A DNA stretch of 64,000 bases from Bdellovibrionales bacterium (GCA_031370005.1 JANMPT010000025.1:1-64000), one strand, 5' to 3'; positions 1 through 64,000 are shown, numbered from the stretch's first letter. The notes: generated from the sequence alone by a model not told the origin. Numbers and translations are program-made.

Positions 1-1494
1 GTGGATTGGATTTTTTCTTCGGATTTTGTGGATTTGCCTTCAAGGCGTGCGGTGAAGGGTCATGGGCTCACGACGACAATTCTTGATTATTACTACAATT
101 TCGACTTAGTCGTTAATAGGCTAAGCGATCTTTACTTGTACTATACTTATCCAAGCGGAAGATTGTCGACGACAACGCTTGATAATATTTTCGATGCAAG
201 AACTTATGATGTCTATGGGGAGTTAGAAACCTACACTGCAAAATACGTTGATCCGTCCACCGCTATAGAAACTATTTTATATACGTATGCTTTGACTCGT
301 GATTTAGCAGGACGTATTAGCCAAAAGCAAGAGACCATTGGCGGCGTTACGACAGTTTGGAATTACCAATACGACACTCAAGGCCGACTCACAGAGGTCA
401 AAAAAGATTCAGTGGTTTATTCAAGCTACGTCTATGATGACAACGGGAACCGCATAAGCGGACAGACGGGGGGAGTGGCCTTCACCTCGACCTTTGATGA
501 CCAGGACCGTCTACTCACCTATAACTTAAGAAGCTATGCTTACAATAAGAATGGCGATCTATCACAGATCCAGTGGAATACAACGAGCACGACTTCATAT
601 GTCTACGATATGTACGGGAACTTGAATCGCTTTACCGGCACAGATGGAGTTATTCACAGCTATATTGTTGATCCATTCCACCGTCGAGTGGGCAAAAAAA
701 TCGGTGCAACAAATGTCAATTTTAGATATATTTACGAGAACCAATATCGAATAGCAGCTCAGCTCACTGGTCCTGGCGTAGTGCAGAAGGTATTTGCATA
801 CGCGACTCCAGGAAACGCGGCAGACTACTTCATAGCAAGTGGAGTGCGCTACAGAATTATAAAAGACAATTTAGGATCTCCACGGCTAGTGGTGAGATCC
901 AGCGATGGAGTGGTACAGCAACAAATGGATTACAACGAGTGGGGTAAAGTTATGAGTGACACGAACCCTGGGTACCAGCCCTTCGGATTTGCGGGCGGGA
1001 TATATGATTTAACCTCAAAGCTGGTTCGATTTGGAGCTCGGGATTATGATCCTGAGGTTGGGCGGTGGACGGCGAAGGATCCGATTCTATTTAAGGGTGG
1101 GGATACGAATTTGATGTCTTATGTTGGCGGGGATCCTGTGAATTGGATTGACCCCACAGGTTTATATCAAGTTTGTTCTCGCCCGTTAAATGTGGCAGGG
1201 GGTTCAGCACTTCAAAGCCAAGATCCCACGCTTTCTCATCAGTATATTAAATTTGAGGACGGCTTAACGGCGTCTTATGGAAATTCCAGCATAAACCCAA
1301 TTTCAGGCCCTGGAACACAGTTAAATGAATCAGGTGCCGGAGCCACATGTAGTAAGAATATAAAAGTTGGCGATACCGCCGAAAATAGAATGAAGGAATA
1401 TGCAAAAAAGAGATACTCACAGCCATATCATCTGTTGAATAATAACTGTCAACAGTTTGTAGGTGACGTGATTCTGAACGGAAGTGGGTTATAG
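1..1494 (+). CDS. Rhs/YD-repeat polymorphic toxin (probably 5'-truncated by window) with permuted papain-like C-terminal domain
   Basis: YD repeats; Rhs core motifs [47 protein letters not shown]; tip has HQY...YHLLNNNCQQFV. Confidence 0.93.
   Translation: MDWIFSSDFVDLPSRRAVKGHGLTTTILDYYYNFDLVVNRLSDLYLYYTYPSGRLSTTTLDNIFDARTYDVYGELETYTAKYVDPSTAIETILYTYALTRDLAGRISQKQETIGGVTTVWNYQYDTQGRLTEVKKDSVVYSSYVYDDNGNRISGQTGGVAFTSTFDDQDRLLTYNLRSYAYNKNGDLSQIQWNTTSTTSYVYDMYGNLNRFTGTDGVIHSYIVDPFHRRVGKKIGATNVNFRYIYENQYRIAAQLTGPGVVQKVFAYATPGNAADYFIASGVRYRIIKDNLGSPRLVVRSSDGVVQQQMDYNEWGKVMSDTNPGYQPFGFAGGIYDLTSKLVRFGARDYDPEVGRWTAKDPILFKGGDTNLMSYVGGDPVNWIDPTGLYQVCSRPLNVAGGSALQSQDPTLSHQYIKFEDGLTASYGNSSINPISGPGTQLNESGAGATCSKNIKVGDTAENRMKEYAKKRYSQPYHLLNNNCQQFVGDVILNGSGL
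1000..1154 (+). repeat. Rhs core-end segment, copy 1 (duplicated at 1989-2143)
   Basis: 1000-1086 is identical to 1989-2075 (87 bp); the rest is highly similar. Confidence 0.95.
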
Positions 1495-40091: not shown

Positions 40092-40606
40092 AAAAACTCA
40101 TAGCTAACAACCACGGACAGACAATAATTGAAAACGTCTTAGCAATGGGTTTGCTGGTTGTGGTTTTTTATATGATTGTTGACGGCAGTCTTCAGCTGTT
40201 TAAGACCGAGTCTAAAACAGGTCAGGTCTCCGCAGAGTATCAAATGGTCTCTCAATTGATTGAGACTATTAAGGGCGAGCCCGCAGTCTATCAAAAAAAC
40301 TTTGTGCCAAACGCTGGCGGTATAAACTCTTACTTGGCGACTTTTCCCTATGGATATGCCGGCAATGTTCTTTATACGGGCAACCCACCTAACTGCGATT
40401 CGAGCGCTCCTTTGGCAAATGGAAGTATTGGCGGTGGCGGCGTAATCAATACTTTTTGTGATGCCCTTATGACCTACACAATTCAACCCAGTCTAAATTA
40501 TAGCGGGCTTTTTAAGGGCTCAATTAGAGTTAAGCATATAAATAAGGATCCACTCGCGACACCAACACCGGATAGCAATTACTATTTTTTAATTAATACA
40601 AACTAG
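40088..40606 (+). CDS. Type IV minor pilin (PilV-like)
   Basis: NHG|QTIIENVLA. Confidence 0.75.
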   Translation: MKKLIANNHGQTIIENVLAMGLLVVVFYMIVDGSLQLFKTESKTGQVSAEYQMVSQLIETIKGEPAVYQKNFVPNAGGINSYLATFPYGYAGNVLYTGNPPNCDSSAPLANGSIGGGGVINTFCDALMTYTIQPSLNYSGLFKGSIRVKHINKDPLATPTPDSNYYFLINTN

Positions 40607-40612
40607 GGGCAT

Positions 40613-41578
40613 ATGAAAGACAATAAAGGTTTCTCCATTATAGAACTTAGTATTGCCATAGCTCTTTTGGGTATTGTTCTGCTCGCGTTTATGGACGTAA
40701 TGCAATACATGCGCATTATGGAAAACAGGGTTAAAATCCGAGCGGATTCACACACCTCTCAGACCCTGGGAGAGCGCTTTTTATGGATGGGGCTTAAAAA
40801 TGCAGCACCATCTTTTAATAATATTCCAATGCTTGATGACAATGGCTTTAACTTCTATGATCTCAACCGCGATGTCCCTTCGAATTCAATACCTAACGCC
40901 ACTCGAATACTGACTTTAAACTTAATCGGCGGGCAAACCACCTTTTTTGCTCTTTTGAGTGAATCCACTACGGCAAACGTGAGCAGTGGGGCTCCGGAGG
41001 TTATGTTTCTAGATCCTGCTAAGTTTTATCAAATTAATGATTTGGCCGCCCCAGCGGCAACGCCTTTTAATTGGACTTTTTTTAGAAACTATATCCTTGC
41101 ACAAAATCCGAATTTTTTGGCAAAAGCAACACAGGTATTAGAGATTTATGTTCCTTCCACATTTAGAAATATCGGGGCCCCAGTAAGTACAATGCCAAAC
41201 AGCACGAGCTATTTTTTGCGCTGTACGTCTTCTCCAACCCCTTGCAACACTGAAAATTTTGGCGGCATGGTGAGTTTCAAAAATGCTGCGGACAACACGG
41301 TTTCCATTGCCAATTTTGACGACTTCGTAAAAACAATACCGCCAGCCAGCGGAGGAATTCCGCCTATATTAGCTAGAGTGGTGCGCATGGTTCGCTATCA
41401 GTTGCAACCAAAGCCGTCTTACGCTACGGGTATTGGGGATTTATCTTATTCAACTTGGGATGGCGCTGGCTTTACTGCGCCGGTTTTAATTGCCGACCGA
41501 GTTAAACAGGTCGTTCTTCAAAGGCCTAATATCACAGATCCAACGATCACTATTGATTTAACTTTGGAAAAACGCTGA
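40613..41578 (+). CDS. Prepilin-type N-methylation domain protein (PilW-like)
   Basis: NKG|FSIIELSIAIALLG. Confidence 0.85.
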   Translation: MKDNKGFSIIELSIAIALLGIVLLAFMDVMQYMRIMENRVKIRADSHTSQTLGERFLWMGLKNAAPSFNNIPMLDDNGFNFYDLNRDVPSNSIPNATRILTLNLIGGQTTFFALLSESTTANVSSGAPEVMFLDPAKFYQINDLAAPAATPFNWTFFRNYILAQNPNFLAKATQVLEIYVPSTFRNIGAPVSTMPNSTSYFLRCTSSPTPCNTENFGGMVSFKNAADNTVSIANFDDFVKTIPPASGGIPPILARVVRMVRYQLQPKPSYATGIGDLSYSTWDGAGFTAPVLIADRVKQVVLQRPNITDPTITIDLTLEKR

Positions 41579-41599: not shown

Positions 41600-43099
41600 A
41601 TGAAAAAACGAAGTGTTTTAGCAATTTTAATTCTTAGCTCAGCGCAAGTTTTTGCGGCCCAGGTATTGGTTCGTCCGAGTCAGGCCGGAAGAGCCACAGA
41701 TACGATGATTTTTTCAGATCAGGCGACCTCCTTTTCGGATCCTAATATGGGATTTCAGGTGCGCCTGAATGTCTCTTGTTTTCGAACAAATCTTCGAAGT
41801 GTGACAAATCCAATTTCGCCAACAGGGGCCGTAAGATTTGCCTTGAGTTTAAGTTCTGGCAATACTTTTTCGCTGGTATTTCCGGGTTGGTTGGTTATGA
41901 ATACCGGCGCAAATGCACAAGTTGTGACCCCGCCTCCTGTCGCCGTTGCTAACGGCACATATTATCTCACCGCCTCTGTTGATCCCCAGGATGTGCCCTA
42001 TGCGTACCCCGGCCCGGCTCAGCCTGTGCGAACCCGCTCTTTTGGAAACACGCTTATTTTTAACACGCCGGTTGGTTTCGTTTCTGGGGTACCCTTATCT
42101 GCTGCTGGTGACTATACCTACGCAAACTATGCCACTTTGATTCAAAGTGTCACTTTTGTTCAACAGGTTTCGAGTGTTGTTGGCCAGCAGGCAACTATCG
42201 TTAAGCTGGATCAGCCGCCGAGCTTAGCGCCATGGAAATTCCAGAAAATTTTTACGGCGTTAATGAGCCCACTTAACTGGATTTCATGGGGATCAGTTGA
42301 AGAGACTCATGCCGGGGGTGGGCTTCCGCTTATTGAGCCACCAGTTAGTTTAACCCTCTATGAAGACGTCGGATGGTATCAACCGCGCTTTGCCTGGTAT
42401 GCTCAAATAAGCTCGGTGCTGGCGGCAACCCCAGCAAATCCTTCGAATTACGTCCAAACCCCCAGTGTTGTGCAGCAATATATGGGGACGACGGGGCCAC
42501 TTACGGGAAGTTGGCAGGCGACTTGGTCCAACGATTTTAAGGTTTTAAATGTGAACGCATCATTTCCTGGGCAAGTTAATTACTGCGGCGGATTTTTTTC
42601 GCCACTGATGCTGTTTTTTGATTCTAAAGAGCCTCAGTTTAACCGCTTTGTTGATTTCAAAATGAGCAGTTATTCGGACCAAACCTATTGGCCAGAACCT
42701 GAAACTAAAGCCGCCTTTTTGGTGCTAGATAGAAATGGTGATGGGATTATCAACGATGTGACAGAGATGTTTGGCAGTGAGGACAGCTCTTTAAACGGAT
42801 TTGAGCTGCTTGCCGCTTTTGACGAAAACGGTGATGGCGTCATTGATGCAAAGGATCCGGTTTATTCTCAATTGCGCCTTTGGACAGACTCAACAGGAAA
42901 AGCAATCACTCTTAAGAAGGACTTGAAAACTTTGAAAGAGGCCGGGGTCGAGTCCATTTCTTTGAATTACAATAAGTCGGCGGTGCTGCCAATCGACAAT
43001 CGGGCCGAACTCAGGGAGCGTTCATCTTTTACCATGGTAAAAGATGGCAAGAGAACACAAGGTGAAGTCATTGACGTTTGGTTTGCTAACAAAAGGTAA
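41600..43099 (+). CDS. Secreted protein with C-terminal EF-hand (FrpC SPM-like) module
   Basis: Signal VFA; GGFFSPLMLFFD, DRNGDGIIND..EMFG, NGFELLA.FDENGDGVIDAKD..YSQLRLW.D, DVWF. Confidence 0.75.
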   Translation: MKKRSVLAILILSSAQVFAAQVLVRPSQAGRATDTMIFSDQATSFSDPNMGFQVRLNVSCFRTNLRSVTNPISPTGAVRFALSLSSGNTFSLVFPGWLVMNTGANAQVVTPPPVAVANGTYYLTASVDPQDVPYAYPGPAQPVRTRSFGNTLIFNTPVGFVSGVPLSAAGDYTYANYATLIQSVTFVQQVSSVVGQQATIVKLDQPPSLAPWKFQKIFTALMSPLNWISWGSVEETHAGGGLPLIEPPVSLTLYEDVGWYQPRFAWYAQISSVLAATPANPSNYVQTPSVVQQYMGTTGPLTGSWQATWSNDFKVLNVNASFPGQVNYCGGFFSPLMLFFDSKEPQFNRFVDFKMSSYSDQTYWPEPETKAAFLVLDRNGDGIINDVTEMFGSEDSSLNGFELLAAFDENGDGVIDAKDPVYSQLRLWTDSTGKAITLKKDLKTLKEAGVESISLNYNKSAVLPIDNRAELRERSSFTMVKDGKRTQGEVIDVWFANKR

Positions 43100-45410
43100 G
43101 AGCTTTATAAAAGGCAATATAGAGGAAATTCGCGCTTCACCGGCACTGCGAAAATATGGTTTTTTTCTATCATTCATTCACTTTTTCACATTTGCATATT
43201 GGTTTTCTTATGCAGATATCTATAATCTAATCAGCCGGGCGACGCCAGCTTTTTGCCAGCCCTTCTTTCAGTCCTGTGAAGTTTTTCGCTTTGGCACTCC
43301 TGAACTTTGGCGCTGGATTCTTGTGGCCTATTTTTTGGCTGGACTGCTGAGCTCTGCACTGTGGTTAATGGGCTTCATTCGCTGGGCCTATATAGCCGCG
43401 CTGGTACTGTTTCTTTTTAAGTTTTTTATTTATATTCAGGATTATCGTTTAACGGACAGCTATCATTATATTCATTTTCTTTTTCTTTTTCTTTTTTTGT
43501 TCGTTCCCCGAAAGCTCAAAATTATTCCCTTTGCCATTGTTTTAATATATTGGGTGGCGGGAATTCAGCAACTCAATATGGGATTGAGTGGCATAAGATG
43601 GACGACGGCTTATGTTCTTGTTTTGGAATTATTTTTCTCTACTTTGCTGTTAAGCTCAAAGCCCTTCTGGCAAAAGTTCGCACTCATTCAGTTTTTTATT
43701 TTTCATATTTATTCAATCCAATTCGTTGGGCTGTTTTATCCTGCCGTCATGCTTTGTGTACTGAGTATTTTCATTCCTATGTTTAAAGCCAAGAACGCAG
43801 CCCCTGGGTTATCAGAAATTTGGCACTATAAGCCGCATCGCAATTTGGTCTTTCTTTTTATTTTGGCACAGCTCTATCCCGTAGTCCTTCCCGGAAAGGC
43901 GGCCTTAACCGGGGAAGGTCGTTTGCTCGCATTAAATATATTTGCTTCGCGAGCCACCTGTCGCCATAGTTTTGTGGTTGAGATGGGAGCAGGCCGATAC
44001 CAGCAACTTCAGATCCGCACAGAATCAATTGGTGCCGGAATTCGTTGCGAGCCCTATCTTTATCTAGAGTTCGCGCGTCGGCTTTGCGAAGACTTTGCCC
44101 ACGAGGGCAATCCAGCCATAGTGGATATTCATTTGCAGAGTCGGTTGAGCAGCGAAAATAACTTTAGTCCGATTGTGGATCAAAAAAATATCTGTCAAAG
44201 TAAGATTCGCTTTAACCCGCTCTTTAGCAATTCTTGGATTGAAAAAGGTGAACCCGCCACGGAAGAAGTCACTCCGTGGTTTTATCAAAATGCAAAAATA
44301 GAAGCCTCAGATGATATCTTTATGTATCGTGGGGATGCCCAACGCAGCGGAACGGTTTTAACAAAGGAACTCATTCATCCCCTGAGCCGGCCTTTTTGGC
44401 GTAAGCCGAACTGGAATGCCTCCGCTCTCTCTGTAAGTAAAAGTTCAGCAGTTTCCGATGGCAAGGCGGTTTATGTCGGCTCGGATCAAGGATATTTTGC
44501 TGCGGTCGATAGCACCGGGAAAGAGTTTTGGCGTTGGATTATGACAGCTAAAAACGGCGTTCTTGGCAGTGCGCTTATTGCTGGGGATTCCGTTTTCTGG
44601 GGGGACGCTGCGGGGATACTTTATTCAGCACAAAAAAAAACTGGTGCATTAAATTGGCTTTTACCTATAGGGCGAGCCATAGATTCCTCGCCGCTTTATG
44701 ATGATGGCTTTATTTATGTGTCAGTTACCGGCGTCTTCCCAGAGGATGGATTTGTCGCCAAGGTCGATGCGCGTACAGGAAAGCTTTTATGGAAAAGCCC
44801 TTCCCTTGGCGATCAAGTGCAGTCTTCACCAGCGCTTTCTGAAGACGGCAAGCTTGTTTTTGTCGGCTCAAATAATGGGTATCTGACGGCAATAGATAAG
44901 CAAACAGGAAACTTTGTTTGGCGTTATGGGGCAGGTCTAGCAATTAAGGGAACGCCCCTGGTGGCAGCAGGCTCCGTTATTTTTTGCTCCTGGGACCAGA
45001 ACCTGTATCGTTTAAATTCTACTACTGGTGAACTTATTTGGAATGCGCCTCTGGAAAGCGACTGCCAAAGTTCAGCGACCTGGTCAAAAAAAGAAAACGC
45101 AATCTATATAAGTACCTTGGATGGTGCCACATCCGCATTTGATTTTAGTACTGGAAAAGAGCTTTGGCAGCACCAGGGCAGTGGCAGTTTTTTATCTAGT
45201 CCAGTTTTATTGATAAAAAATAGTTTAGAATCCACAGAACAACTTTTGGCGAGTTGTTTTGAGCAGGAGCTTTGTATTTTCAATTCAAAAAATGGTAGTA
45301 TTAAAAGGAAAATAAATCTTGGTGATCGCTTAAGTTCTGTTCCTTGGATAAATAATGGGGAGCTGATTTATACGTTAGATTCGGCGGGGGGGCTTGTTCA
45401 GTGGAAATAA
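43044..45410 (+). CDS. HTTM-like membrane domain fused to PQQ-like (BamB-type) beta-propeller
   Basis: About 8 TM segments with QDYRL, Y..AG, FH..S..VG.FYP, ALTGEGRL; C-terminal MYRGD..RSG and SSP/W propeller repeats. Confidence 0.72.
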   Translation: MAREHKVKSLTFGLLTKGKSFIKGNIEEIRASPALRKYGFFLSFIHFFTFAYWFSYADIYNLISRATPAFCQPFFQSCEVFRFGTPELWRWILVAYFLAGLLSSALWLMGFIRWAYIAALVLFLFKFFIYIQDYRLTDSYHYIHFLFLFLFLFVPRKLKIIPFAIVLIYWVAGIQQLNMGLSGIRWTTAYVLVLELFFSTLLLSSKPFWQKFALIQFFIFHIYSIQFVGLFYPAVMLCVLSIFIPMFKAKNAAPGLSEIWHYKPHRNLVFLFILAQLYPVVLPGKAALTGEGRLLALNIFASRATCRHSFVVEMGAGRYQQLQIRTESIGAGIRCEPYLYLEFARRLCEDFAHEGNPAIVDIHLQSRLSSENNFSPIVDQKNICQSKIRFNPLFSNSWIEKGEPATEEVTPWFYQNAKIEASDDIFMYRGDAQRSGTVLTKELIHPLSRPFWRKPNWNASALSVSKSSAVSDGKAVYVGSDQGYFAAVDSTGKEFWRWIMTAKNGVLGSALIAGDSVFWGDAAGILYSAQKKTGALNWLLPIGRAIDSSPLYDDGFIYVSVTGVFPEDGFVAKVDARTGKLLWKSPSLGDQVQSSPALSEDGKLVFVGSNNGYLTAIDKQTGNFVWRYGAGLAIKGTPLVAAGSVIFCSWDQNLYRLNSTTGELIWNAPLESDCQSSATWSKKENAIYISTLDGATSAFDFSTGKELWQHQGSGSFLSSPVLLIKNSLESTEQLLASCFEQELCIFNSKNGSIKRKINLGDRLSSVPWINNGELIYTLDSAGGLVQWK

Positions 45411-47726: not shown

Positions 47727-48386
47727 ATGATTTTTAAGTCTGTTAAAGATGGTTGTTTGCTTGATGCATCTAACAGCATGTACCCGAGTGTTTTAAGGGG
47801 ATTCGACCACGGAGAAGAAAGCTTTTCACTGCCAACAAGTACATATTTTGGCTTCGTGGTAAATGGGAATTATGAGCTTCATCGTCAAAATCAGCACTTT
47901 GCGACACTTCAAACAGGAATGTATTTTTCCGCTACGGGACCTTTTACATTAAAAGGCAAAGGCGAAATGATAGTCATCGAAAGGTTGGGCTATCGTGGAC
48001 TTATGCAATTCGGTGGCCCCGTCGAGGAAGTCGGACGTCTGTGTTACATCGATAACTCCAATACCACGATGATTTTGCCGCCGCCAAGGATGGGCGACCC
48101 TGTTTTTAATCTGCTCGTATTTCCCCCTAAGGTGATACAAACACCACACATTCATCCCACGGTTCGTTTGGGCGTTGTTTATGAGGGCGAGGGAGAGTGT
48201 ATCCTGCCAAATCAAAAGCCATTAGCTTTGAAGCCAGGAATTGCATTTTTGTTAGCAGAAGGAGCAGTTCACTCATTTAATTCTTTTGATAAAAAACTTA
48301 AGATTATTGCATTTCATCCGGATTCAGATACGGGCCCAACGGATGCCTCGCATCCGATGTTGAATCGGACTTATACGAAAATTTAG
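47727..48386 (+). CDS. Cupin-domain protein
   Basis: QTPHIHP.VRLG.V..GEG and H.F metal motif; GGPVEE.GRL.YID. Confidence 0.85.
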   Translation: MIFKSVKDGCLLDASNSMYPSVLRGFDHGEESFSLPTSTYFGFVVNGNYELHRQNQHFATLQTGMYFSATGPFTLKGKGEMIVIERLGYRGLMQFGGPVEEVGRLCYIDNSNTTMILPPPRMGDPVFNLLVFPPKVIQTPHIHPTVRLGVVYEGEGECILPNQKPLALKPGIAFLLAEGAVHSFNSFDKKLKIIAFHPDSDTGPTDASHPMLNRTYTKI

Positions 48387-48709
48387 GCTTTATTTTTTTT
48401 AGCACCGGCTCGTTTTATATTTTCTTGACCGCGAGCCTTTGCATTCGAGCCCACCACGAGTCCATACTTTTTAACAAGTATGGACTGCAGGCTATCGAGA
48501 TTTCGAAAATAGTTAGCCTTTAGATCGCCATAATCAAAGACAATTCCAAAGCGCTCTTCGAAGACATTCACCATCTGAATGACGGAAAAAGAGTCTAAAA
48601 TACCTTCTTCAAAAAGGTCCATCTTGGAGTGAAATTCGCGATCCCTAATGCGCGGGTTTACCTCGCGAATTATTTTTTTCAGGATATTTAAATTAACTTT
48701 TTTTGCCAC
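48383..48709 (-). CDS. Acyl/aminoacyl carrier protein (DltC-like)
   Basis: DLFEEGILDSF phosphopantetheine site; EERFGI. Confidence 0.88.
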   Translation of the reverse strand: MAKKVNLNILKKIIREVNPRIRDREFHSKMDLFEEGILDSFSVIQMVNVFEERFGIVFDYGDLKANYFRNLDSLQSILVKKYGLVVGSNAKARGQENIKRAGAKKNKA

Positions 48710-49265
48710 CGACAGCCTTCCTTTCTCTGTTCATTACCGAGTAGACGCCGAGATTGACGTTTAACTGCAGGTAATTATAGAAGTCATCGACCTGCGATAT
48801 AGAGTGGATTGAATCCAATTTGTCATAAAATTTTTTTAAAAATACTTTTATTCTTTTTAACAAAATTATTTTTTCTTCGGCCACAAAGAGCCAGTATTTT
48901 TTAAAGTTAGTATCACTTATTGGCGTCTTTTGAAGTGCTTCATTGGAAAAGCTTGATTTGATCTCCTCTTTCATGATTTGAATGCTCGTGAGAAGCAAGA
49001 CGGAGACCTCTAGTTTTCTCTTTAAAAGAGCAAGCCTTTCCTGGTCTTTTTTTGTTAAGGTTGGGGAGGCCGTTTGAAAACCCTTTAGCGGATCATAGGT
49101 ATGATAGAGGGGTTTTATTCCGGAGACGTCAAGTTCGGTGCTTAAAGCCTGAACATGAACTCCCTTAAGCGGGGTGAAAAAATTAAATTTAATGCTTTTT
49201 TTCACAAAAAGGACTCGGTCAGTTTTTATATCAGTATAAATGAAAAGCTTAAGTCTTTCTGACAT
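48693..49265 (-). CDS. Hypothetical protein (putative partner of PP-loop enzyme)
   Basis: Overlaps both neighbours; GGAGG RBS. Confidence 0.6.
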   Translation of the reverse strand: MSERLKLFIYTDIKTDRVLFVKKSIKFNFFTPLKGVHVQALSTELDVSGIKPLYHTYDPLKGFQTASPTLTKKDQERLALLKRKLEVSVLLLTSIQIMKEEIKSSFSNEALQKTPISDTNFKKYWLFVAEEKIILLKRIKVFLKKFYDKLDSIHSISQVDDFYNYLQLNVNLGVYSVMNRERKAVGGKKS

Positions 49266-50295
49266 AAGCCTCCAACTCTTCAATTGAATTTACTTGGCGA
49301 AAGTGAGAATCAACAGCGATTCGTTTTTCACTTAAGACATAAGTTTTTTCCAAGCTTTGAATTTTGAGCAAGTCATGCTGCCTTTGGTCCAATGTAAAAT
49401 CCGCGATAAATTTTTTTGCGACATGTTTATAAGATTTCCAGGTATTTTTAATTTTTAGGTCATGATTGTTCAGACTCCACCGCTGAAAGTCTACACTATC
49501 GTAAAAGTGAAGGATGTGACTTCCATATTTCGCTTCAAGGCACCAATCTTTATTTTCATAGAATCGATACTTTACATGCTGCCATTTTTGAGAAAAATTC
49601 AGCCACCAAAAAAAATCATGAGTAGTTTTGATTGGAAATGGGGCCTCGCTGACAATGGGTAAAAAATGCTCGAAAATTTTTCTCCCAGATGTTTTAACCC
49701 CGGTGTAGGCATCAATAACTTGTGGGCAATAATCTAAGTAGTTTTTGCTTAAAATCTCGTCGCCGAGCACTTTACATCCGGAAGCTAAAATGTCAGATCC
49801 AAATAACTGATCGCCAAGTTCGCCTGTAACCAAAAGAGCTTTGTTCGTCATCAACATTTTTGAGATAGGCAGAAGTGAGTTTATTAAATTAAACCGAGAA
49901 ATATACTTATCAAAAAAAGAAGGATTCTCCTCTACAGAGTGATGCGACAGCACGACCGAAATTTTTTTAAGTTCATTTGCAGGCCAGAATTTCAGAACAG
50001 AAGACATCATGTTGGTGCTGTCGATGCCACCACTATAAGCAAACCAATAGTTGTCAAAATTATATTTTAAAAGATTAAGCGCGCGATCCGCGCAGCAGTC
50101 CTCCCATGTTTTGGAAGAGGTCTGTTTGGTCAATTCAGAGATCGGTTCGGCTTGAAGGGAAAAGTTAAAAAGATCCGGTTTATAGGTCAGCCGGCTCACT
50201 GTCTTATCAAAGGGATCAAATAGCACAGCGGATTCTGAAATAATGCTTTTAAGGCTTTGGCTAGTTTTGATGCTGAGACTTAAAAGTTGTTTCAT
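49249..50295 (-). CDS. PP-loop ATPase, asparagine-synthetase-like, no glutaminase domain (paralog 2)
   Basis: YSGGIDST; VTGELGDQLFGS. Confidence 0.78.
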   Translation of the reverse strand: MKQLLSLSIKTSQSLKSIISESAVLFDPFDKTVSRLTYKPDLFNFSLQAEPISELTKQTSSKTWEDCCADRALNLLKYNFDNYWFAYSGGIDSTNMMSSVLKFWPANELKKISVVLSHHSVEENPSFFDKYISRFNLINSLLPISKMLMTNKALLVTGELGDQLFGSDILASGCKVLGDEILSKNYLDYCPQVIDAYTGVKTSGRKIFEHFLPIVSEAPFPIKTTHDFFWWLNFSQKWQHVKYRFYENKDWCLEAKYGSHILHFYDSVDFQRWSLNNHDLKIKNTWKSYKHVAKKFIADFTLDQRQHDLLKIQSLEKTYVLSEKRIAVDSHFRQVNSIEELEAYVRKT

Positions 50296-50299
50296 ATAG

Positions 50300-51409
50300 T
50301 TAAAAGGGCGCATCCTTAAAGCTGTTCTTTGGATTGTACCAGTCTTTTCTGGGCAGACTTGCATACATTTTCATTTCGTCATCAATAAAGTTCTTCTGAA
50401 TTTGATGCATTATGACCCAGGTCAGAGACCCATTTTTTGTCTTATAGTCTCTATAGTGACTATCTTTGTTAAACCTATAGATGACTTCTTTTGCCTCCCA
50501 CTTGTAAGATTCCCAAGTGGTTATGACTCTCTTGTCTGGGTTGTTCATGGACCAAAGCTGAAAATCTTCAGTACCAAAAAAATGGAAAAAATAATTTTCG
50601 ATAAAATCGGTATCAATATTATGAGCGGCAAAATCTGATGTGTATGTCAGCATTCTGAAGTAAACGGATTGCCACTTAAGCGAAAAGTTAATCCACCACA
50701 AGAAATCCGCATTGGAAGAAACTGGGCATGGTGCCGCTGAGTAAAGGCGTTCAAACAAATCCATATACCAGGAGACAGCGGTCGGATCATGTAATTTTCT
50801 TCCGAACATTTTACTCATCTTCTGGCGATTGTATTTTGTCTTAGCGGCGTTTTCTCCGAATAGATCCATAAAATCCTTGAAAAGCGCCGAACCAAAAATT
50901 TGATCGTTATATTCCCCTCCGACAAAGAGGGCTTTTTTTGATAGAATATATGGATAGATCGCGGCGGCCTCCAGCTTTACTTTACCGCGAAGATGATCCC
51001 TATAAAAATTAGGATTTTCTGCAATCGACTCTTGTGACAACAAAACGCAGATGCGCTCTTTCTGTGCAGCACTGGCGTTTTTAAGCAAGGAAACCAATAC
51101 CAGGGTTGAATCAATGCCCCCAGAGTAAAATGTATAAATGGGCAGACCCTGCTTATCAGAGCGCTTTAGCAATTCAACCGCCCGCTCATCACAAATTTGC
51201 TCATAAGTCTTATCCAGTTTTCTGAATTCAGGTAGGGGCGAGTGAATTTTAACGTTCACAGGGACTTGGATTGTGTTTGTCCTGTCAATCAGTACAACAT
51301 TGTCATTGAAAAGCAGAAAGGTCTGATGAAAAGCACGAATTCCGGGCAGCTCTTGCAGCCTTTTTGCGGTGATGACCATGGGGTTGTACATGTAAATATT
51401 TTTAGACAT
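50300..51409 (-). CDS. PP-loop ATPase, asparagine-synthetase-like, no glutaminase domain (paralog 1)
   Basis: YSGGIDST; VGGEYNDQIFGS. Confidence 0.78.
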   Translation of the reverse strand: MSKNIYMYNPMVITAKRLQELPGIRAFHQTFLLFNDNVVLIDRTNTIQVPVNVKIHSPLPEFRKLDKTYEQICDERAVELLKRSDKQGLPIYTFYSGGIDSTLVLVSLLKNASAAQKERICVLLSQESIAENPNFYRDHLRGKVKLEAAAIYPYILSKKALFVGGEYNDQIFGSALFKDFMDLFGENAAKTKYNRQKMSKMFGRKLHDPTAVSWYMDLFERLYSAAPCPVSSNADFLWWINFSLKWQSVYFRMLTYTSDFAAHNIDTDFIENYFFHFFGTEDFQLWSMNNPDKRVITTWESYKWEAKEVIYRFNKDSHYRDYKTKNGSLTWVIMHQIQKNFIDDEMKMYASLPRKDWYNPKNSFKDAPF

Positions 51410-52100
51410 GCGAATTTAAGTAATACTCCCGGATAAAGTCCTGAAAAATTTTATTATTTTCCTCAATAGTCGCTGCATTTGAAATCAAGTCGAAGTACTT
51501 CAATTTAATTTCCTCTGTTTGCCATAGCGCCGCCTCAAATAGTCCAAAGTGAAAAATAATCTCATCAGCGGCCTCTCTTGAACTTATTTTTTTAACTTGG
51601 GCGTATTGAAACACGAACAAGTAGTCTTTAACCTGCTCTTCGTTATAGCCCGACTTTCGAAACGCCAGAGCCTGCTCCCTGCGCATGTAATCTACGAGCT
51701 CGCCGTATTTTTCTGAATGTGCGACCCGCATTCTTGATTGTGTTATCACGCGGGAAACTCGCTGGAGGTTCTTTACCCGAGCCGTCAAAAGCAAACTGTT
51801 TTTTAGTTGCTGCTCAGTTGGGGGCCGGCTCTTCGTTATTTTTACTACGGCTCCAGATTGTCGATGATAAAGGAAGCTCAACAGCTCCTCAGGCGGTAAC
51901 GTCAGCAAGTCTGCGGTGCGAACCTTGGAGTGAAGTATGGGCTTGCCGCCAGGGATGAGGTTAAACCCCATCTCCATTTGCGAAGACATTAAGGCCAATG
52001 CAGCGCTAGTAAATGGAGTGACGCAGAGTATGCGTTTTGACTTGAGATGCCACAAAATACAAACGTTTCTTCTTGGTAAGGGCTCATCAATTTCAATCAT
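51402..52100 (-). CDS. Hypothetical protein (putative partner of PP-loop enzyme)
   Basis: Overlaps the downstream PP-loop gene; helical C-terminus EQALAF..GY...QYA...AADEII. Confidence 0.65.
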   Translation of the reverse strand: MIEIDEPLPRRNVCILWHLKSKRILCVTPFTSAALALMSSQMEMGFNLIPGGKPILHSKVRTADLLTLPPEELLSFLYHRQSGAVVKITKSRPPTEQQLKNSLLLTARVKNLQRVSRVITQSRMRVAHSEKYGELVDYMRREQALAFRKSGYNEEQVKDYLFVFQYAQVKKISSREAADEIIFHFGLFEAALWQTEEIKLKYFDLISNAATIEENNKIFQDFIREYYLNSHV

Positions 52101-52146: not shown

Positions 52147-53610
52147 CTACTTCCGAGCTAAAATGGTCGTGAAGTGATAATAGGCATTGATAATGTTCAC
52201 ATCACAAAATCCGATGTTTTCGAGTTCACTCATGTACCAGCTTAGCGGATAGGGGTCGAGAACTCCCCTTATGGCCTCAGCTTTATCTTTTATTTGTTGC
52301 TCACTGATGCCATTTTTTCGTTTAAAATCATGATACAGATCTAGGATAAATGGATTCCCCTGCATCTTATCCGATATAATCAGAAAGCCACCAGGCGCTA
52401 ATCCGTCATAGATATCTTGAAGGTATTCTTTGCGCGCCTTCACGAAGTGCAGGGTCCAATTTGCGCAGACCAGGTGAAAGGGCGGCTGGCCCTGGGGAAA
52501 TGTGTCCGACAAAATAACATGATCTTGGTGCATGGAGTTCTTAACCATCGACTCAGATTTTTCAACGCCCCAGGTGTCTAGAAAACCGGCCTTGATAAAC
52601 TCATCCATGGTTCGACCAATTGCTGAGCCAATGTCTAGAACTCGACAATTCTTTTTAGGATAAGCCTTACTTGCAATTTCAACGCACATACCAATAACCT
52701 CTTTGTATCGAGGAATTGACGTTAGCGCGATTTTTTCGAAATCTTTTGAGACCTTTTCGTCGAACGTCCATGAGCCGGTCCGCATTTTTTTTCCGGGCGT
52801 GTATTGAACAAAATCTTCTCTTGGAAGCGTGAATTTTCCACTTTTTAGTTCAGCGGCCAAGTCTTCAACCTTCGCCCCACTTTTTTTAAATCGCATCATA
52901 AATCGAACGGGCATCTGCCATCCTGGCATGATTTCATTAAAGGCATCATGGCGTCCCTTGATACGCGCCGGACTTATAATGCCTTCAGGGCAGGTGAAGC
53001 CGAAGTGCGCCATCACCATTTTTAGACCGCCAGGGCTGATGCGGCTGCCGATGCCTCGAGCCCTCTCTTGTCCGTTCGGCAAGGTGATGCTTTGTTTGGG
53101 TGAGAACTCAACGTAAGGGACCTCGACATTAATAGGCTTCTGCGGCAGAATTGACTCTATAAGAACCCATTCTTTCGCCGCATAACTCATCTTTTCAAGA
53201 ATGGAAAAGTAATCCAAAAATACAAACAAAACTCCGGCCATGAGAACGATGTCATACTCGTCCTCTTTAACTTTCTCAAGAAAGTCGGAGATCTCGGATT
53301 TTACTAAACGAAACTGGTCTTTTGACCAGTGTTTGCTAAGAAGAGCTTTAGATTGTTTAAGATATTCGGATTGGATTTCAACTCCGGTATATTTTTTAGC
53401 GCCATAGGACAGACACCAGTGCCCTGTCGCCCCAAGACAAGAGCCTAAATCTAAAACTTTTTTACCCTTAATGATCCACTCGGGCAACAAAGCCCCATGT
53501 TTTGCCTCGAGGGTTTCTTTTGTAACAGGCACCACAGGCCTGTGATTTCTATTATCATTTAAAAAAAAACCGGGCTCAATTTCAAATGGAGACTTTTTTT
53601 TTGCAGCCAC
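52147..53610 (-). CDS. Didomain SAM-dependent enzyme: N-terminal CmoB/DUF1698-like transferase plus C-terminal CmoA-like carboxy-SAM synthase domain
   Basis: Two motif-I sites (VLDLGSCLG; VLDIGSAIG); C-domain WTFDE, SIPRY, NWTLHF, IYDGLAPGG.LIISDK, HDFKRKNG.SE..I..K. Confidence 0.8.
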   Translation of the reverse strand: MAAKKKSPFEIEPGFFLNDNRNHRPVVPVTKETLEAKHGALLPEWIIKGKKVLDLGSCLGATGHWCLSYGAKKYTGVEIQSEYLKQSKALLSKHWSKDQFRLVKSEISDFLEKVKEDEYDIVLMAGVLFVFLDYFSILEKMSYAAKEWVLIESILPQKPINVEVPYVEFSPKQSITLPNGQERARGIGSRISPGGLKMVMAHFGFTCPEGIISPARIKGRHDAFNEIMPGWQMPVRFMMRFKKSGAKVEDLAAELKSGKFTLPREDFVQYTPGKKMRTGSWTFDEKVSKDFEKIALTSIPRYKEVIGMCVEIASKAYPKKNCRVLDIGSAIGRTMDEFIKAGFLDTWGVEKSESMVKNSMHQDHVILSDTFPQGQPPFHLVCANWTLHFVKARKEYLQDIYDGLAPGGFLIISDKMQGNPFILDLYHDFKRKNGISEQQIKDKAEAIRGVLDPYPLSWYMSELENIGFCDVNIINAYYHFTTILARK

Positions 53611-53615
53611 GAGTT

Positions 53616-53912
53616 CTACCCCTGATTCGACGTAATGTTTTTGATTTTTGGCCTAGCCTCACTCAAAATGCACCGAAAAATTTTCTGCATAGAGTCCTCG
53701 GAAAGAGGGCCCTGACATATTGACCGAACTTTTGAAAAAATAGCGTTTTCTCTAGTAGGATCAATCAAAGGGAGTTGATTGTGTTGCTTTAAGAGCCAGA
53801 CTTCTTCTACAAGTGCCGCGCGTTTATTCAGCGCAATAGCAATTTGCGCATCGAGCTGGTCAATTTCATTTCGAAGTTTTTTTAAATCTAGCGCTGTATT
53901 CCAGTTTCCCAT
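53616..53912 (-). CDS. Chorismate mutase (AroQ type II)
   Basis: L.KLR.EID.LD.QI...LNKR...V..LK....D.TRE..I; ATG at 53912 with RBS. Confidence 0.88.
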   Translation of the reverse strand: MGNWNTALDLKKLRNEIDQLDAQIAIALNKRAALVEEVWLLKQHNQLPLIDPTRENAIFSKVRSICQGPLSEDSMQKIFRCILSEARPKIKNITSNQG

Positions 53913-53987
53913 TCTCTTCCTAAGGTTAGGCTTAAATATTACAAGTTTTACAGCAAAACACCAAGCCAAATTCAGTTGGGACCTAGA

Positions 53988-55364
53988 CTATCCAAACAGG
54001 TGCTGGAGTTGCATGAGCCAGCTATGCCAGTTGGTACTTAAAATAATCGCAAGGATAATAGTCGATATTTGTAATACGTAGGTAGTAATAACAGAGGCCC
54101 ATGGCGTCCAAATCGAACGGTTATTTGACCATTGGAAAAACCAATACCTTTGAGTTATATACAACAATAGAAAATGAAGAAAAAATAAAATGACAGAATA
54201 GCGCAAGTCTGGATTTCTATAAATTCCACCATGAATGTCAGACCCGGCCCAATTTAAAATCATAATGCCGACGTCGAAGACGCCATTTTTCATGATATAA
54301 AAAAAGAAAAAGCAGACGAAAGTTACAATGAATCGACTTCGGATTAATCGCCAAAGTCTTAGAAACAGATATCTATTGATAAACTCATAATGATAAACGC
54401 TGCCACGCCGCCAGTATTCAGCAGGAGTTCTCGCTAGCCATGAAAAACTAGTTGCATCCCGTACGCGATACCCAAACAGCCTGGCAACACCGGTAATGAC
54501 ATTGAAAGCGCCGACATCAGATAAGATGAGCAGTACATACTTAACCGTGGACTTTACCAAAATATTTCCTGAACGATCCAGGCCCGCCTTATCCAATTGC
54601 ACTTTTAGATATATGATCAGATAGCCAAGGACAACGCCCCAAAAGCCTTTCCACCAAAACTGCGCTATCGCTGGGCGGTTTTTGCGCGCAAGTACCGTGA
54701 CCACGGGCCAGAGCACGCCATGGGTCGCCGTTGCTGGGTTATAAGCTAAAAAAGGATCCACAGGGCGCGGTGAGTAAGCATAGGCCAGCTGAATTGCGAC
54801 GAGCACCATATACTGGAGTTTAAATTTCCAGAAAAGCAGTAACATAGAAAACTCTTCTAAAGCATAGAGCCTGCCGCTGATATAGAGCCACGAAAACGTG
54901 AAATAACCGAGCAAAACAAGGACCCACGTTGCTCTCGTTTGTTGTTTCCGACGGGCGGTCCCAATATAATAGGTGAAAATGCTGTTCAAAGGCAGGAGGA
55001 GGGTAATCAGAACAAAAACATCAATGGGGACTTTGCCTAAGAAAAATATATAACAGTTTAAGCCCCAGGAAAGCATAGTTACGAGAGCACTATACCAGCC
55101 TCTAGCCGTGCCCTTGAAAAAAATCGAGATTCCGGCGCAAGCAAATAATAAGGGCATCACAAACCGGCTTTGTCTCACAAAGGGAAACATTCCAAACGGC
55201 TGTAAATGGGTGTTCATTTCCAAAATCGATTTAATCCAAAGAGCCATGAGAACTAATATGATTGCGGCGAAGGGAGTTGCCCACTTTAGACGGGCGCCAC
55301 AATATTCAGATAGTCGAACTTCAAAGCGTCGGAGATAAATTTCAAGCTGAGCCGGTGAAATCAT
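53988..55364 (-). CDS. MBOAT family (DltB/AlgI-like) membrane protein, divergent
   Basis: Multi-TM; ARLFGY, WLARTPAEYWRR...RYLF. Confidence 0.72.
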   Translation of the reverse strand: MISPAQLEIYLRRFEVRLSEYCGARLKWATPFAAIILVLMALWIKSILEMNTHLQPFGMFPFVRQSRFVMPLLFACAGISIFFKGTARGWYSALVTMLSWGLNCYIFFLGKVPIDVFVLITLLLPLNSIFTYYIGTARRKQQTRATWVLVLLGYFTFSWLYISGRLYALEEFSMLLLFWKFKLQYMVLVAIQLAYAYSPRPVDPFLAYNPATATHGVLWPVVTVLARKNRPAIAQFWWKGFWGVVLGYLIIYLKVQLDKAGLDRSGNILVKSTVKYVLLILSDVGAFNVITGVARLFGYRVRDATSFSWLARTPAEYWRRGSVYHYEFINRYLFLRLWRLIRSRFIVTFVCFFFFYIMKNGVFDVGIMILNWAGSDIHGGIYRNPDLRYSVILFFLHFLLLYITQRYWFFQWSNNRSIWTPWASVITTYVLQISTIILAIILSTNWHSWLMQLQHLFG

Positions 55365-62656: not shown

Positions 62657-64000
62657 TTATCCGAGGTGCTCAGCCTTCCTTTGAAAAACCATTAGATGAG
62701 AAACTATATATTGATATTTTCTTTCATGCTCGCGAATCAAAAGGGGCACGTCAGAGGTTTTAAGTAAATTAAAGTCAGGATCCATAAATTGTTTTATTTC
62801 ATCACTGCTAGAAATAGCGGTATTGTTTTCGCGACGAGCACCAAGCCAGTGCGCGCGAGCCGTATGTTGCTCAAGCCAAGAGTAAGGCGAAAATAAAATT
62901 AAAAGACCACCAGGACGAACCGCTCCGTTTTTCCCCGACATCGCCGCTAAACAGGCTTTAGGGTCTGGCAGGCGACAGAGGAGATTTGCCATCATAACGG
63001 CATCAAAATTATTTAACTGTGGCGGAAGATTGCAGGCATCGGCTTCTAAAAATTGAATTCGCTCCGGATGAGAGTCTTTGGGCTTTTTTGCGGTTAGACG
63101 AGTTCGGATCTCCCCTTGATCTTTGCGGTCAAACTCAATTTCATCAGCGGCCTTCAAGTGATTTGCAGCAGCGATAAATGAAGAGCTTAAATCCACGCCA
63201 GTTACTGACTCAAAGTACTGGCTAAGGACAAAGGAGGAGCCACCCACCGCGCAGCCTAAATCAAGAACTGACTTCATTGGGCCTTTGGCTTTTTTCGCCT
63301 CTGCAATAACAAGACTTGCACATCGTTGAGGAAAGGAAAGGGCTTCAGTTGGTCCGAAATCAAAAGGGAATACAACCTTCGGATCAGAAAAGTGAAGTAG
63401 CAGGTACTGAGATAACAATTCGGAACTTTCATAATCTGAGCCACCGAGCGGGCCAGCCTTATTTACCCGCATAGCACTTGTATAGTGAGCCCCTGCTGCA
63501 CTTTGAATCACTCTAAAGCCGGCATGTTGAAAAAAGTGTGGACGGAAGTGGAACCGCGCATAGGGCTCTGCTTCCGCGCCAGTACTAGCAAAAGAGCCAC
63601 CCATAATCATTTGATGTTTTCCATCAAAACACGGAGTGCTAAAATCTTCGTAGTAGGGGTGAGCAGCAAAACCCGGCAGTGGATTGAACTCATCCTCACA
63701 CCACTGCCACACATTGCCAAAGATGTCGCCAATCCCGTTTGAAGTGTGTTTATTCACAGACACCTCAGAGCCGTACTTTAAGTTTGTATTCCAAGTAGAT
63801 TTTGGATTTATGTTTGTACGCAATCGGTGATGCTCGGCTTCGCTGGTTAATCTGAAAGGGATTTCAGAATTTTCCTTAAGTGTTTTCCAGCGACAAAAGG
63901 CTTTGGCCTCATGAAAATTAACTATGACTGGCCAATCAGGTTGAAATGGTACCATATCGAAAATACGGCGAATGCTATATTCGTGAAGTCCCGCAGGACC
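62657..64000 (-). CDS. ovoA: OvoA-like 5-histidylcysteine sulfoxide synthase / mercaptohistidine methyltransferase (5' truncated)
   Basis: FGE-sulfatase GNVWQW...DFSTPCFDGKH...FRPHFFQHAGFR plus MTase LDLGCAVG, NLLCRL, SPYSW, LIREHERKYQ; frame open to window end. Confidence 0.88.
   Translation of the reverse strand, partial: GPAGLHEYSIRRIFDMVPFQPDWPVIVNFHEAKAFCRWKTLKENSEIPFRLTSEAEHHRLRTNINPKSTWNTNLKYGSEVSVNKHTSNGIGDIFGNVWQWCEDEFNPLPGFAAHPYYEDFSTPCFDGKHQMIMGGSFASTGAEAEPYARFHFRPHFFQHAGFRVIQSAAGAHYTSAMRVNKAGPLGGSDYESSELLSQYLLLHFSDPKVVFPFDFGPTEALSFPQRCASLVIAEAKKAKGPMKSVLDLGCAVGGSSFVLSQYFESVTGVDLSSSFIAAANHLKAADEIEFDRKDQGEIRTRLTAKKPKDSHPERIQFLEADACNLPPQLNNFDAVMMANLLCRLPDPKACLAAMSGKNGAVRPGGLLILFSPYSWLEQHTARAHWLGARRENNTAISSSDEIKQFMDPDFNLLKTSDVPLLIREHERKYQYIVSHLMVFQRKAEHLG

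Follow-up and report, generated by a model that had tools for sequence, protein, structure and literature searches.

A candidate carboxy-SAM synthase-carboxymethyltransferase fusion encoded beside a chorismate mutase in a Bdellovibrionales bacterium

We describe a 487-residue protein, encoded within a 64,000-nucleotide stretch of DNA from a predatory-type bacterium of the Bdellovibrionales (GCA_031370005.1, JANMPT010000025.1:1-64000; hereafter the window), which on a modest balance of the evidence we read as a carboxy-SAM (Cx-SAM) synthase fused to a carboxymethyltransferase for an acceptor that would be neither tRNA nor DNA. In the classical pathway, CmoA makes Cx-SAM from SAM and prephenate, and CmoB transfers the carboxymethyl group to tRNA. 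The known acceptors of Cx-SAM are few, comprising U34 of tRNA, the thiol of a norcysteine, a nucleotide in microcin C and a cytosine of phage DNA, and the fusion, which has at least 309 relatives of fusion length, would add another if our reading is true. It is a single purifiable protein, which allows a direct test, and a natural synthase-transferase fusion should be useful for bioalkylation engineering. In the open literature, subscription journals lying outside the search, no description was found of the fusion, of its PP-loop and cupin partners, or of a supply by chorismate mutase and DAHP synthase. Non-tRNA use of Cx-SAM is already known (TglE/F, MccS/MccB, CmoX); the fusion, its partners and the chorismate mutase supply appear to be new.

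Organisation of the locus

The fusion ORF (52147-53610, minus strand) begins with a GTG at 53610, separated by a 5-nt gap from the stop codon of a stand-alone AroQ chorismate mutase (CM) gene on the same strand (53616..53912, 98 aa; PF01817, E 1.5e-20), the likely source of prephenate. A preliminary description of this DNA, made from the sequence, had placed an AroQ gene 5 nt before a didomain protein, and the coordinates and the CM_2 match (73.6 bits against a cut-off of 27, which puts the product in the AroQ family) agree with it. The CM gene starts with an ATG, immediately 5' of which lies a Shine-Dalgarno-like AGGAAG; ORF calling can extend it to a TTG at 53969, and its relatives begin at the ATG. 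The fusion's N-terminal domain (about residues 1-250; 52861..53610) has a class I SAM fold by both Pfam and fold search, as had been recognised for this half, and is the putative carboxymethyltransferase. The C-terminal domain (about residues 270-487; 52147..52803) is CmoA-like and is the putative Cx-SAM synthase.

Downstream on the minus strand lies the gene for a 232-residue protein of no known family (51402..52100), with no match in Pfam or NCBIfam and a match to PHROG 8983 (function unknown; E 1.4e-5), which is found in 13 loci including the window and usually adjoins a PP-loop gene. Its C-terminal part presumably resembles phage tail-fibre assembly helpers. Two paralogous PP-loop (SGGIDS) ATPases come next on this strand, the first (50300..51409) distantly asparagine-synthetase-like and a candidate acyl-adenylate-forming amide ligase, the second (49249..50364) matching TilS-N at E 0.004. 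They are followed, still on the minus strand, by a 196-residue protein (48693..49283) that by Pfam and locus comparisons has no known family and is confined to the genus, and by an acyl-carrier-like protein (ACP; 48383..48709; PF00550, 22.8 bits against a cut-off of 20.8) whose linkage to the fusion does not extend beyond this genus. A convergent cupin gene (47727..48386, plus strand; PF07883, E 7e-8) encodes a recurrent partner. Upstream of the CM gene is that of a 458-residue membrane protein (53988..55364, minus strand), divided from groEL by a terminator-like hairpin at 55520-55489. The module had been called self-contained, a description that does not hold, since chorismate derives from genes elsewhere in the genome.

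The C-terminal domain and CmoA

The CmoA hallmarks reported for the C-half are all present, WTFDE, S.P.Y, N.TL.F and HDFKR.NG.SE..I..K each occurring once, at residues 281, 298, 384 and 427. The best NCBIfam family is CmoA itself (TIGR00740, E 7e-28), with scores that fall short of the equivalog thresholds, at 97.8 bits for TIGR00740 (threshold 193.3) and 68.2 for PRK15451 (threshold 285). By sequence the closest solved relatives are CmoA/YecO; in a profile search against solved structures, three CmoA chains are found with E-values of 8e-38 to 2e-34, compared with 3e-14, 3e-12 and 5e-11 for the runners-up 8K5L, 3DTN and CysG. The predicted model of the domain superimposes on CmoA 4GEK with Z 25.3 and an rmsd of 2.3 over 207 aligned residues, and the domain also matches PHROG 4752 (E 3e-45). 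The C-domain is thus of CmoA type, and is nearest to CmoA by family, profile and fold.

Structurally, the carboxyl O-methyltransferases BelI and CysG are nearly as close (Z 23.7 against 25.3). These are described in PMC11408123 as isopropylmalate O-methyltransferases with a His-His-Asp calcium site, and they share with the C-domain a lidded fold and would share action on a carboxylate. They differ in a far weaker sequence match (E 5e-11 for CysG against 1e-38 for CmoA) and in the calcium site, whose His-His-Asp motif is unmatched in the C-domain, where the residues read N-W-T-L-H-F.

The C-domain keeps the lidded CmoA fold together with Tyr39 and the lysine triad Lys165/185/198 of CmoA, represented in the window protein by K415, K430 and K443. 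These lysines are kept in 336, 339 and 338 of the 341 unique family C-domain rows, in all 109 SpCmoA relatives and in 23 of 23 tRNA-type CmoAs, and are missing from the two aligned non-CmoA neighbours 3DTN and 8K5L; the use of the triad as a CmoA marker is an observation of the present analysis. There are also near-invariant departures from CmoA, namely W385 (339/341) and H388 (336/341) in place of Phe133 and Gln136, and changes at the A32 and W213 sites set the family apart from all CmoA types. In a tree built without an outgroup and without support values, the C-domains of the fusion family form a separate clade.

The Arg199 site

Is the lack of Arg199 an obstacle to Cx-SAM synthesis? In E. 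coli CmoA, Arg199 forms a salt bridge with the carboxymethyl group and is presented in PMC3663124 as a marker of Cx-SAM enzymes. In the window protein it aligns with Ala444, and an arginine, Arg448, stands four residues on (the 203 site), exactly as the preliminary description had it. The loss of the residue, raised there as a caveat, is therefore real, but it largely falls as an obstacle, as SpCmoA of phage S-B43, a proven Cx-SAM synthase with a kcat of 2.33 per s compared with 0.23 per s for the E. coli enzyme (PMC12783734), likewise lacks Arg199. SpCmoA (gene at L242:2495-3190) has Glu199 and Arg203, the identity of its locus being confirmed by C98 and R350 of CmoX; the main text of PMC12783734 makes no mention of the R199 site. 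We had treated the loss of Arg199 as a knock-out criterion that at first seemed fatal; it was overturned by this control and dropped, because a proven enzyme without Arg199 carries the same i+4 arginine.

The E/R pair at 199/203 occurs in 109 of 109 viral SpCmoA relatives (L293-L401; 59-99% identity, one clade), 87 of which have the R350-type CmoX partner beside them. Among 13 controls, six are R199/E203, six are non-Arg/R203 and one has neither; the control as a whole consists of one clade of S-B43 kin and these 13 hand-picked proteins. Arg199 is present in 22 of 23 tRNA-type CmoAs of the phylum. The Ala444/Arg448 pair of the window protein fits the non-Arg199/Arg203 type, so that it lacks the Arg199 of the CmoA equivalogs and has, through Arg448, the arginine at 199 or 203 that Cx-SAM synthases carry in the broad sense. 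Within the fusion family the picture is more varied: Arg is found at the 199 site in 22 of 341 rows, and at the 203 site Arg in 17 and Lys in 103, the last including the closest relative read. A basic residue occupies one or other site in 209 rows and neither in 132; in a set of 171 thinned to 60% identity, 73 have none. Both sites are basic in only six rows, compared with 33 expected, a mutual exclusion that a simple salt bridge within the helix might account for. As the Arg199 marker misses a proven clade, Cx-SAM enzymes are probably under-annotated. A CmoA-like gene in Aeromonas phage HJ05 (L231:834-3184) has neither arginine; it adjoins a ParB-methyltransferase fusion and has no CmoX match.

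The N-terminal domain

The N-half had been described as CmoB-like, and this stands in part: it has a SAM fold and weak CmoB matches, but these lie far below the cut-off, and the fold search is not specific for CmoB. Modelled with a pLDDT of 93.5, the domain gives hits that are tied among class I methyltransferases, from Z 18.6 for the top hit to 16.7 for CmoB (rank 49, 206 residues aligned); in Foldseek, CmoB chains rank 3-5, again tied with others. CmoB is the NCBIfam family matched most often, by 10 of 19 N-domain members and at E 8e-10 in the strongest case, with about 20 bits against the 209 required for PRK15068/TIGR00452 and an alignment that starts at CmoB residue 112. Most of the N-terminal domain of CmoB, of about 100 residues, is missing.

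The carboxylate site of CmoB is given in PMC4482062 as K91, Y200 and R315. The Y200 site corresponds to residue 129, which is Phe in the window protein and Tyr in 167 of 225 relatives, and R315 corresponds to Arg236 by the end register only of a structural alignment (model 7..244, 4QNX 61..323), a position at which 223 of 225 rows are basic (214 Arg, 9 Lys). K91 could not be placed in the alignment, and R21 and R24, which like D19 are invariant in 225 of 225 rows, are candidate equivalents; the same arginines might just as well bind an acidic substrate. Plausibly, then, the N-domain works like CmoB, yet is no CmoB. A search with the N-domain among annotated phages gave no matches; in atlas searches it led to generic methyltransferase clusters, and the PP-loop protein to unnamed viral clusters only.

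Distribution and gene partners

The best 120 of the 309 fusion-length relatives were retrieved, and 190 loci were taken (49 from genomes, 61 viral and 80 metagenomic). The nearest named relatives are Bdellovibrionales, and the named hosts include Patescibacteria, Alphaproteobacteria and Gammaproteobacteria of Thiothrix/Thiocapsa type; enzymes of this kind are frequent in phages and in tiny symbiotic bacteria. Within the bacterial family of the window genome the fusion occurs in 3 of 182 genomes, with one further C-domain-only match. In many loci the two SAM domains are separate adjacent genes.

Gene partners were counted, as raw frequencies and with profiles built from the same loci, in 57 non-redundant loci that have a C-domain and 5 kb on each side. 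The N-domain is present in 50, so that the C-domain has a dedicated partner transferase, fused in the present case; a PP-loop relative is present in 34, a cupin in 10, and the ACP and MBOAT-like gene together in one. The proposal of an ACP/MBOAT pathway thus finds no support in the family, and the conserved core is instead formed by the PP-loop and cupin partners. The 458-residue membrane protein can be called MBOAT-like only by a motif resemblance seen by eye; neither Pfam nor PDB sequence searches gave a supporting match for it or its relatives. Of 251 genomes in the order, 18 carry such relatives, and most of these lack the fusion.

The cupin, seen in 19 of all 190 loci, has invariant Q138, H141, H143 and H182, and the PP-loop protein an invariant SGGxDS motif, with three of its 23 members matching Asn_synthase, at E 7e-4 or weaker. 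The partnership extends to single chains: P0187, P0188, P0193 and P0196 carry PP-loop, N-, C- and cupin domains together, and three further proteins, among them P0167 with both SAM domains, join the PP-loop domain to one or both of them. These five named chains are 1028-1812 residues long and have low-similarity inserts. In gammaproteobacterial loci the gene after the fusion encodes a true Asn_synthase. Neighbours elsewhere include YcaO with a nitroreductase (L005, L007 and L018), 2OG oxygenases, desaturases, transport proteins that bind carboxylates and a class IV aminotransferase, an assortment suggestive of chemistry on peptides or small molecules.

Some loci depart from this pattern. At L010:9259-9939, L013 and L189, of Saccharibacteria type, a C-domain without an N-domain adjoins a membrane methyltransferase of the PEMT/ICMT family, as does a Rhizobium cmoA that has Arg199 (L234:3199-3948); this neighbour is a possible membrane carboxymethyltransferase. 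In P0217 (570 aa) the C-domain is fused to, and preceded by, a region weakly matching ATP-grasp (E 0.003), another type of ligase linked to it. L024, L025 and L044, two of which are titled Gracilibacteria, fell apart into tiny ORFs when read with table 11 and were dropped from ORF-based counts. Gracilibacteria use another genetic code.

Chorismate mutase and the supply of prephenate

Of the seven charged active-site residues given in PMC5526877, six have counterparts in the CM, namely R14, R31, K42, D51, R54 and E55. The Ser84 and Gln88 sites read Ala86 and Ile90 when the ungapped alignment is extended 7 residues past its end. Gln88 is described in PMC4281200 as part of the CM catalytic set. 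The CM therefore seems to be without it; the lone CMs linked to peptidase-U32 genes likewise have no Gln and mostly share Glu85. The nearest solved CMs are regulatory CM domains of DAHP synthases (cf. PMC5526877), and in the in vitro CmoA assays reported in PMC7496830 a CM is dispensable.

Co-occurrence of CM with the fusion had been proposed as a check, and an unconserved linkage as a point against the original reading. In single-sequence and profile searches, the profile recovering both CMs of the window genome, a CM adjoins the fusion family in only 3 of 190 loci, and these three may overlap the genus genomes and each other and so do not count as independent; at least 500 nt of upstream sequence was present in 161 of 182 loci, and eight loci were without a usable ORF under table 11. 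Linkage is therefore not conserved with the fusion. Within the genus, three of seven genomes have the fusion with an orthologous CM directly upstream, and the other four (80-99% complete) have neither by these queries.

Two of these genus relatives, G080 and G083, have an extra DAHP synthase in the cluster, divergent from the CM, which lies on the opposite strand and 3-5 nt from the fusion; this second copy is absent from G079 and G084, and DAHP synthase is absent at this site in the window cluster. G080 and G083 have chorismate synthase, and in neither was prephenate dehydratase or dehydrogenase found, with a dehydrogenase model of low sensitivity that gives E 1e-6 for the enzyme encoded by the window genome itself. 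The cluster CM is the sole CM match in G080; for housekeeping, the window genome possesses a CM-dehydrogenase as a separate gene.

Elsewhere in this bacterial family, 13 of 16 lone CMs outside the cluster adjoin peptidase-U32 genes, in three arrangements and among kin that are not independent. In these loci (L207, L211-L217, L219, L220 and L266-L268) the U32 protein is RlhA- or TrhP-like, and both TrhP and RlhA need prephenate for RNA hydroxylation (PMC6599085). A lone CM beside a U32 gene thus appears dedicated to providing the prephenate for RNA hydroxylation in the family, and a lone CM would tend to mark a prephenate consumer in these bacteria; this is the best independent support for prephenate use by the fusion, and the rule offers a search handle for further prephenate chemistry. 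Since lone CMs adjoin prephenate users and genus relatives add a DAHP synthase, it is likely that the CM supplies prephenate to the fusion in this genus. The dedicated supply proposed earlier is accordingly favoured by the CM/DAHP-synthase linkage at genus level, but is not family-wide. In the window genome the only U32 match, at G000:C54:28933-29401, consists of two short overlapping pieces, possibly a broken or contig-edge trhP-like gene.

Comparison with known Cx-SAM systems

The pairing of a synthase with a transferase is common to CmoA-CmoB, TglE-TglF, MccS-MccB and CmoA-CmoX. With E. coli CmoA-CmoB, which makes cmo5U34, the fusion shares the CmoA fold and motifs, the lysine triad, a paired SAM-fold transferase and sites like Y200 and R315; it differs in being one polypeptide, in lacking Arg199 and the CmoB N-terminal domain, in W385 and H388, and in its patchy, phage-rich distribution. 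The CmoA-CmoX-CmoY system of phage S-B43 makes 5-glycylcarboxymethylcytosine (PMC12783734). It has in common with the fusion a non-Arg199/Arg203 synthase and a gene logic of synthase, transferase and PP-loop amide-ligase-like protein, whereas the transferase of the fusion has a small-molecule-type fold and not that of a C5 DNA methyltransferase, and a cupin partner and CM supply are added. No CmoX or CmoY tblastn match was found in the 190 family loci, and the similarity of the PP-loop protein to CmoY spans 23 columns only, at 34% probability. DNA modification of the CmoX type was rejected, as SpCmoX matched none of the 190 loci by tblastn and 6 of 12 control loci. TglE-TglF (3-thiaglutamate) and MccS-MccB (carboxymethylated microcin C) are described in PMC10491745 as non-tRNA uses of Cx-SAM; by that description they resemble the fusion in combining a Cx-SAM synthase with a dedicated transferase (in MccB the C-terminal domain) for a non-tRNA natural product, and MccB indicates that such a transferase need not resemble CmoB (PMC10491745). 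Unlike in the fusion, their synthases are separate genes in the account given there.

Proposed pathway and its alternatives

We propose that the CM, an AroQ enzyme by family, would turn host chorismate into prephenate, which the C-domain, given its fold and residues, would decarboxylate while carboxylating SAM in the manner of CmoA, with Arg448 in place of Arg199 and Lys415, Lys430 and Lys443 probably holding the prephenate carboxylates. The N-domain would then transfer the carboxymethyl group, its conserved Arg21, Arg24 and Arg236 perhaps selecting Cx-SAM over SAM. By analogy with CmoY, the PP-loop ATPase, linked through gene fusions, may adenylate the new carboxylate to form an amide, and the cupin, similarly linked, may tailor the product. 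A non-tRNA acceptor, as first suggested, is likely, given that few genomes of the bacterial family carry the fusion, that the CmoB N-terminal domain is mostly missing and that the partners are PP-loop and cupin enzymes. That this acceptor is a peptide or amino-acid-derived molecule is a guess, with rather less than an even chance of being right; here it may be carrier-bound and delivered to the cell surface. Channelling between the domains, suggested earlier, is unsupported, because in many loci they are separate genes and because the linker has a pLDDT of about 61 and the whole model a pTM of 0.59. More tentative, and in our view doubtful, is the wider reading of a four-enzyme pathway (synthase, transferase, PP-loop amide ligase and cupin) by which acceptors of a novel class would receive a carboxymethyl-amide and which, in hosts seemingly without Phe/Tyr synthesis, would have a prephenate supply of its own. 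Equally tentative is the accompanying suggestion that this pathway has dispersed among phages, Patescibacteria, sulfur bacteria and predators and that its acceptor is, for example, a peptide or a protein of the cell surface.

Other readings must be weighed against a Cx-SAM synthase-transferase. The C-domain might use its lysine pocket to bind prephenate, or an aryl or 2-oxo dicarboxylate related to it, and perform other chemistry, either methylation or decarboxylation without CO2 capture, the N-domain then methylating an arginine-held acidic intermediate. We regard this as unlikely but to be taken seriously: the family is its own clade, with invariant W385 and H388, changes at the A32 and W213 sites relative to all CmoA types and 132 of 341 rows that have no basic residue at 199/203, the linkage of CM and DAHP synthase fits equally well, and carboxyl O-methyltransferases of CmoA fold exist, with a His at an H388-like site (PMC11408123). 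Against it stand the SpCmoA-type arginine of the window protein, the missing His-His-Asp metal motif of CysG/BelI and the obligate second transferase, which bespeaks the need of a cofactor-making enzyme.

It is improbable that both domains are ordinary SAM methyltransferases of a tailoring cluster and that the CM is the left-over regulatory partner of a DAHP synthase lost from the window site. The CmoA-specific lysine triad in about 99% of the 341 rows and a CmoA profile E-value of 1e-38 compared with 3e-14 for the next match argue otherwise, as do the lone CMs that follow prephenate users in the bacterial family and the position of the CM, which is on the opposite strand to DAHP synthase, 3-5 nt from the fusion, and stays when the synthase is absent; for it speak the generic fold hits of the N-domain, the CM adjacency in 3 of 190 loci only and the kinship of the CM with DAHP-synthase regulatory domains. 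We think it very improbable that the protein is a fused, divergent CmoA-CmoB making cmo5U in tRNA in a genome without the usual pair. No CmoA or CmoB exceeds the cut-off in the window genome, and the N-domain does match CmoB weakly, but the fusion is confined to 3 of 182 genomes of the bacterial family plus a lone C-domain match, most of the CmoB N-terminal domain is missing and the partners are PP-loop and cupin enzymes; moreover, true tRNA-type pairs of the phylum keep R199 (22 of 23) and K91, Y200 and R315 (21 of 21 seen).

Other features of the window

A promoter scan was uninformative, with 17 found against 15.7 expected. Upstream of the cluster, at 37437-41578, are three genes whose putative prepilin-like N-termini are suggested by a motif; their products are candidate surface acceptors. 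The region 43044-45410 encodes a membrane domain with a PQQ-type beta-propeller, and 8 of the 190 loci have related propellers close to the fusion family, in several cases together with YcaO. Finally, 62657-63955 encodes an FGE-sulfatase-like domain with a methyltransferase, presumably akin to the C-terminal part of the ovothiol synthase OvoA.
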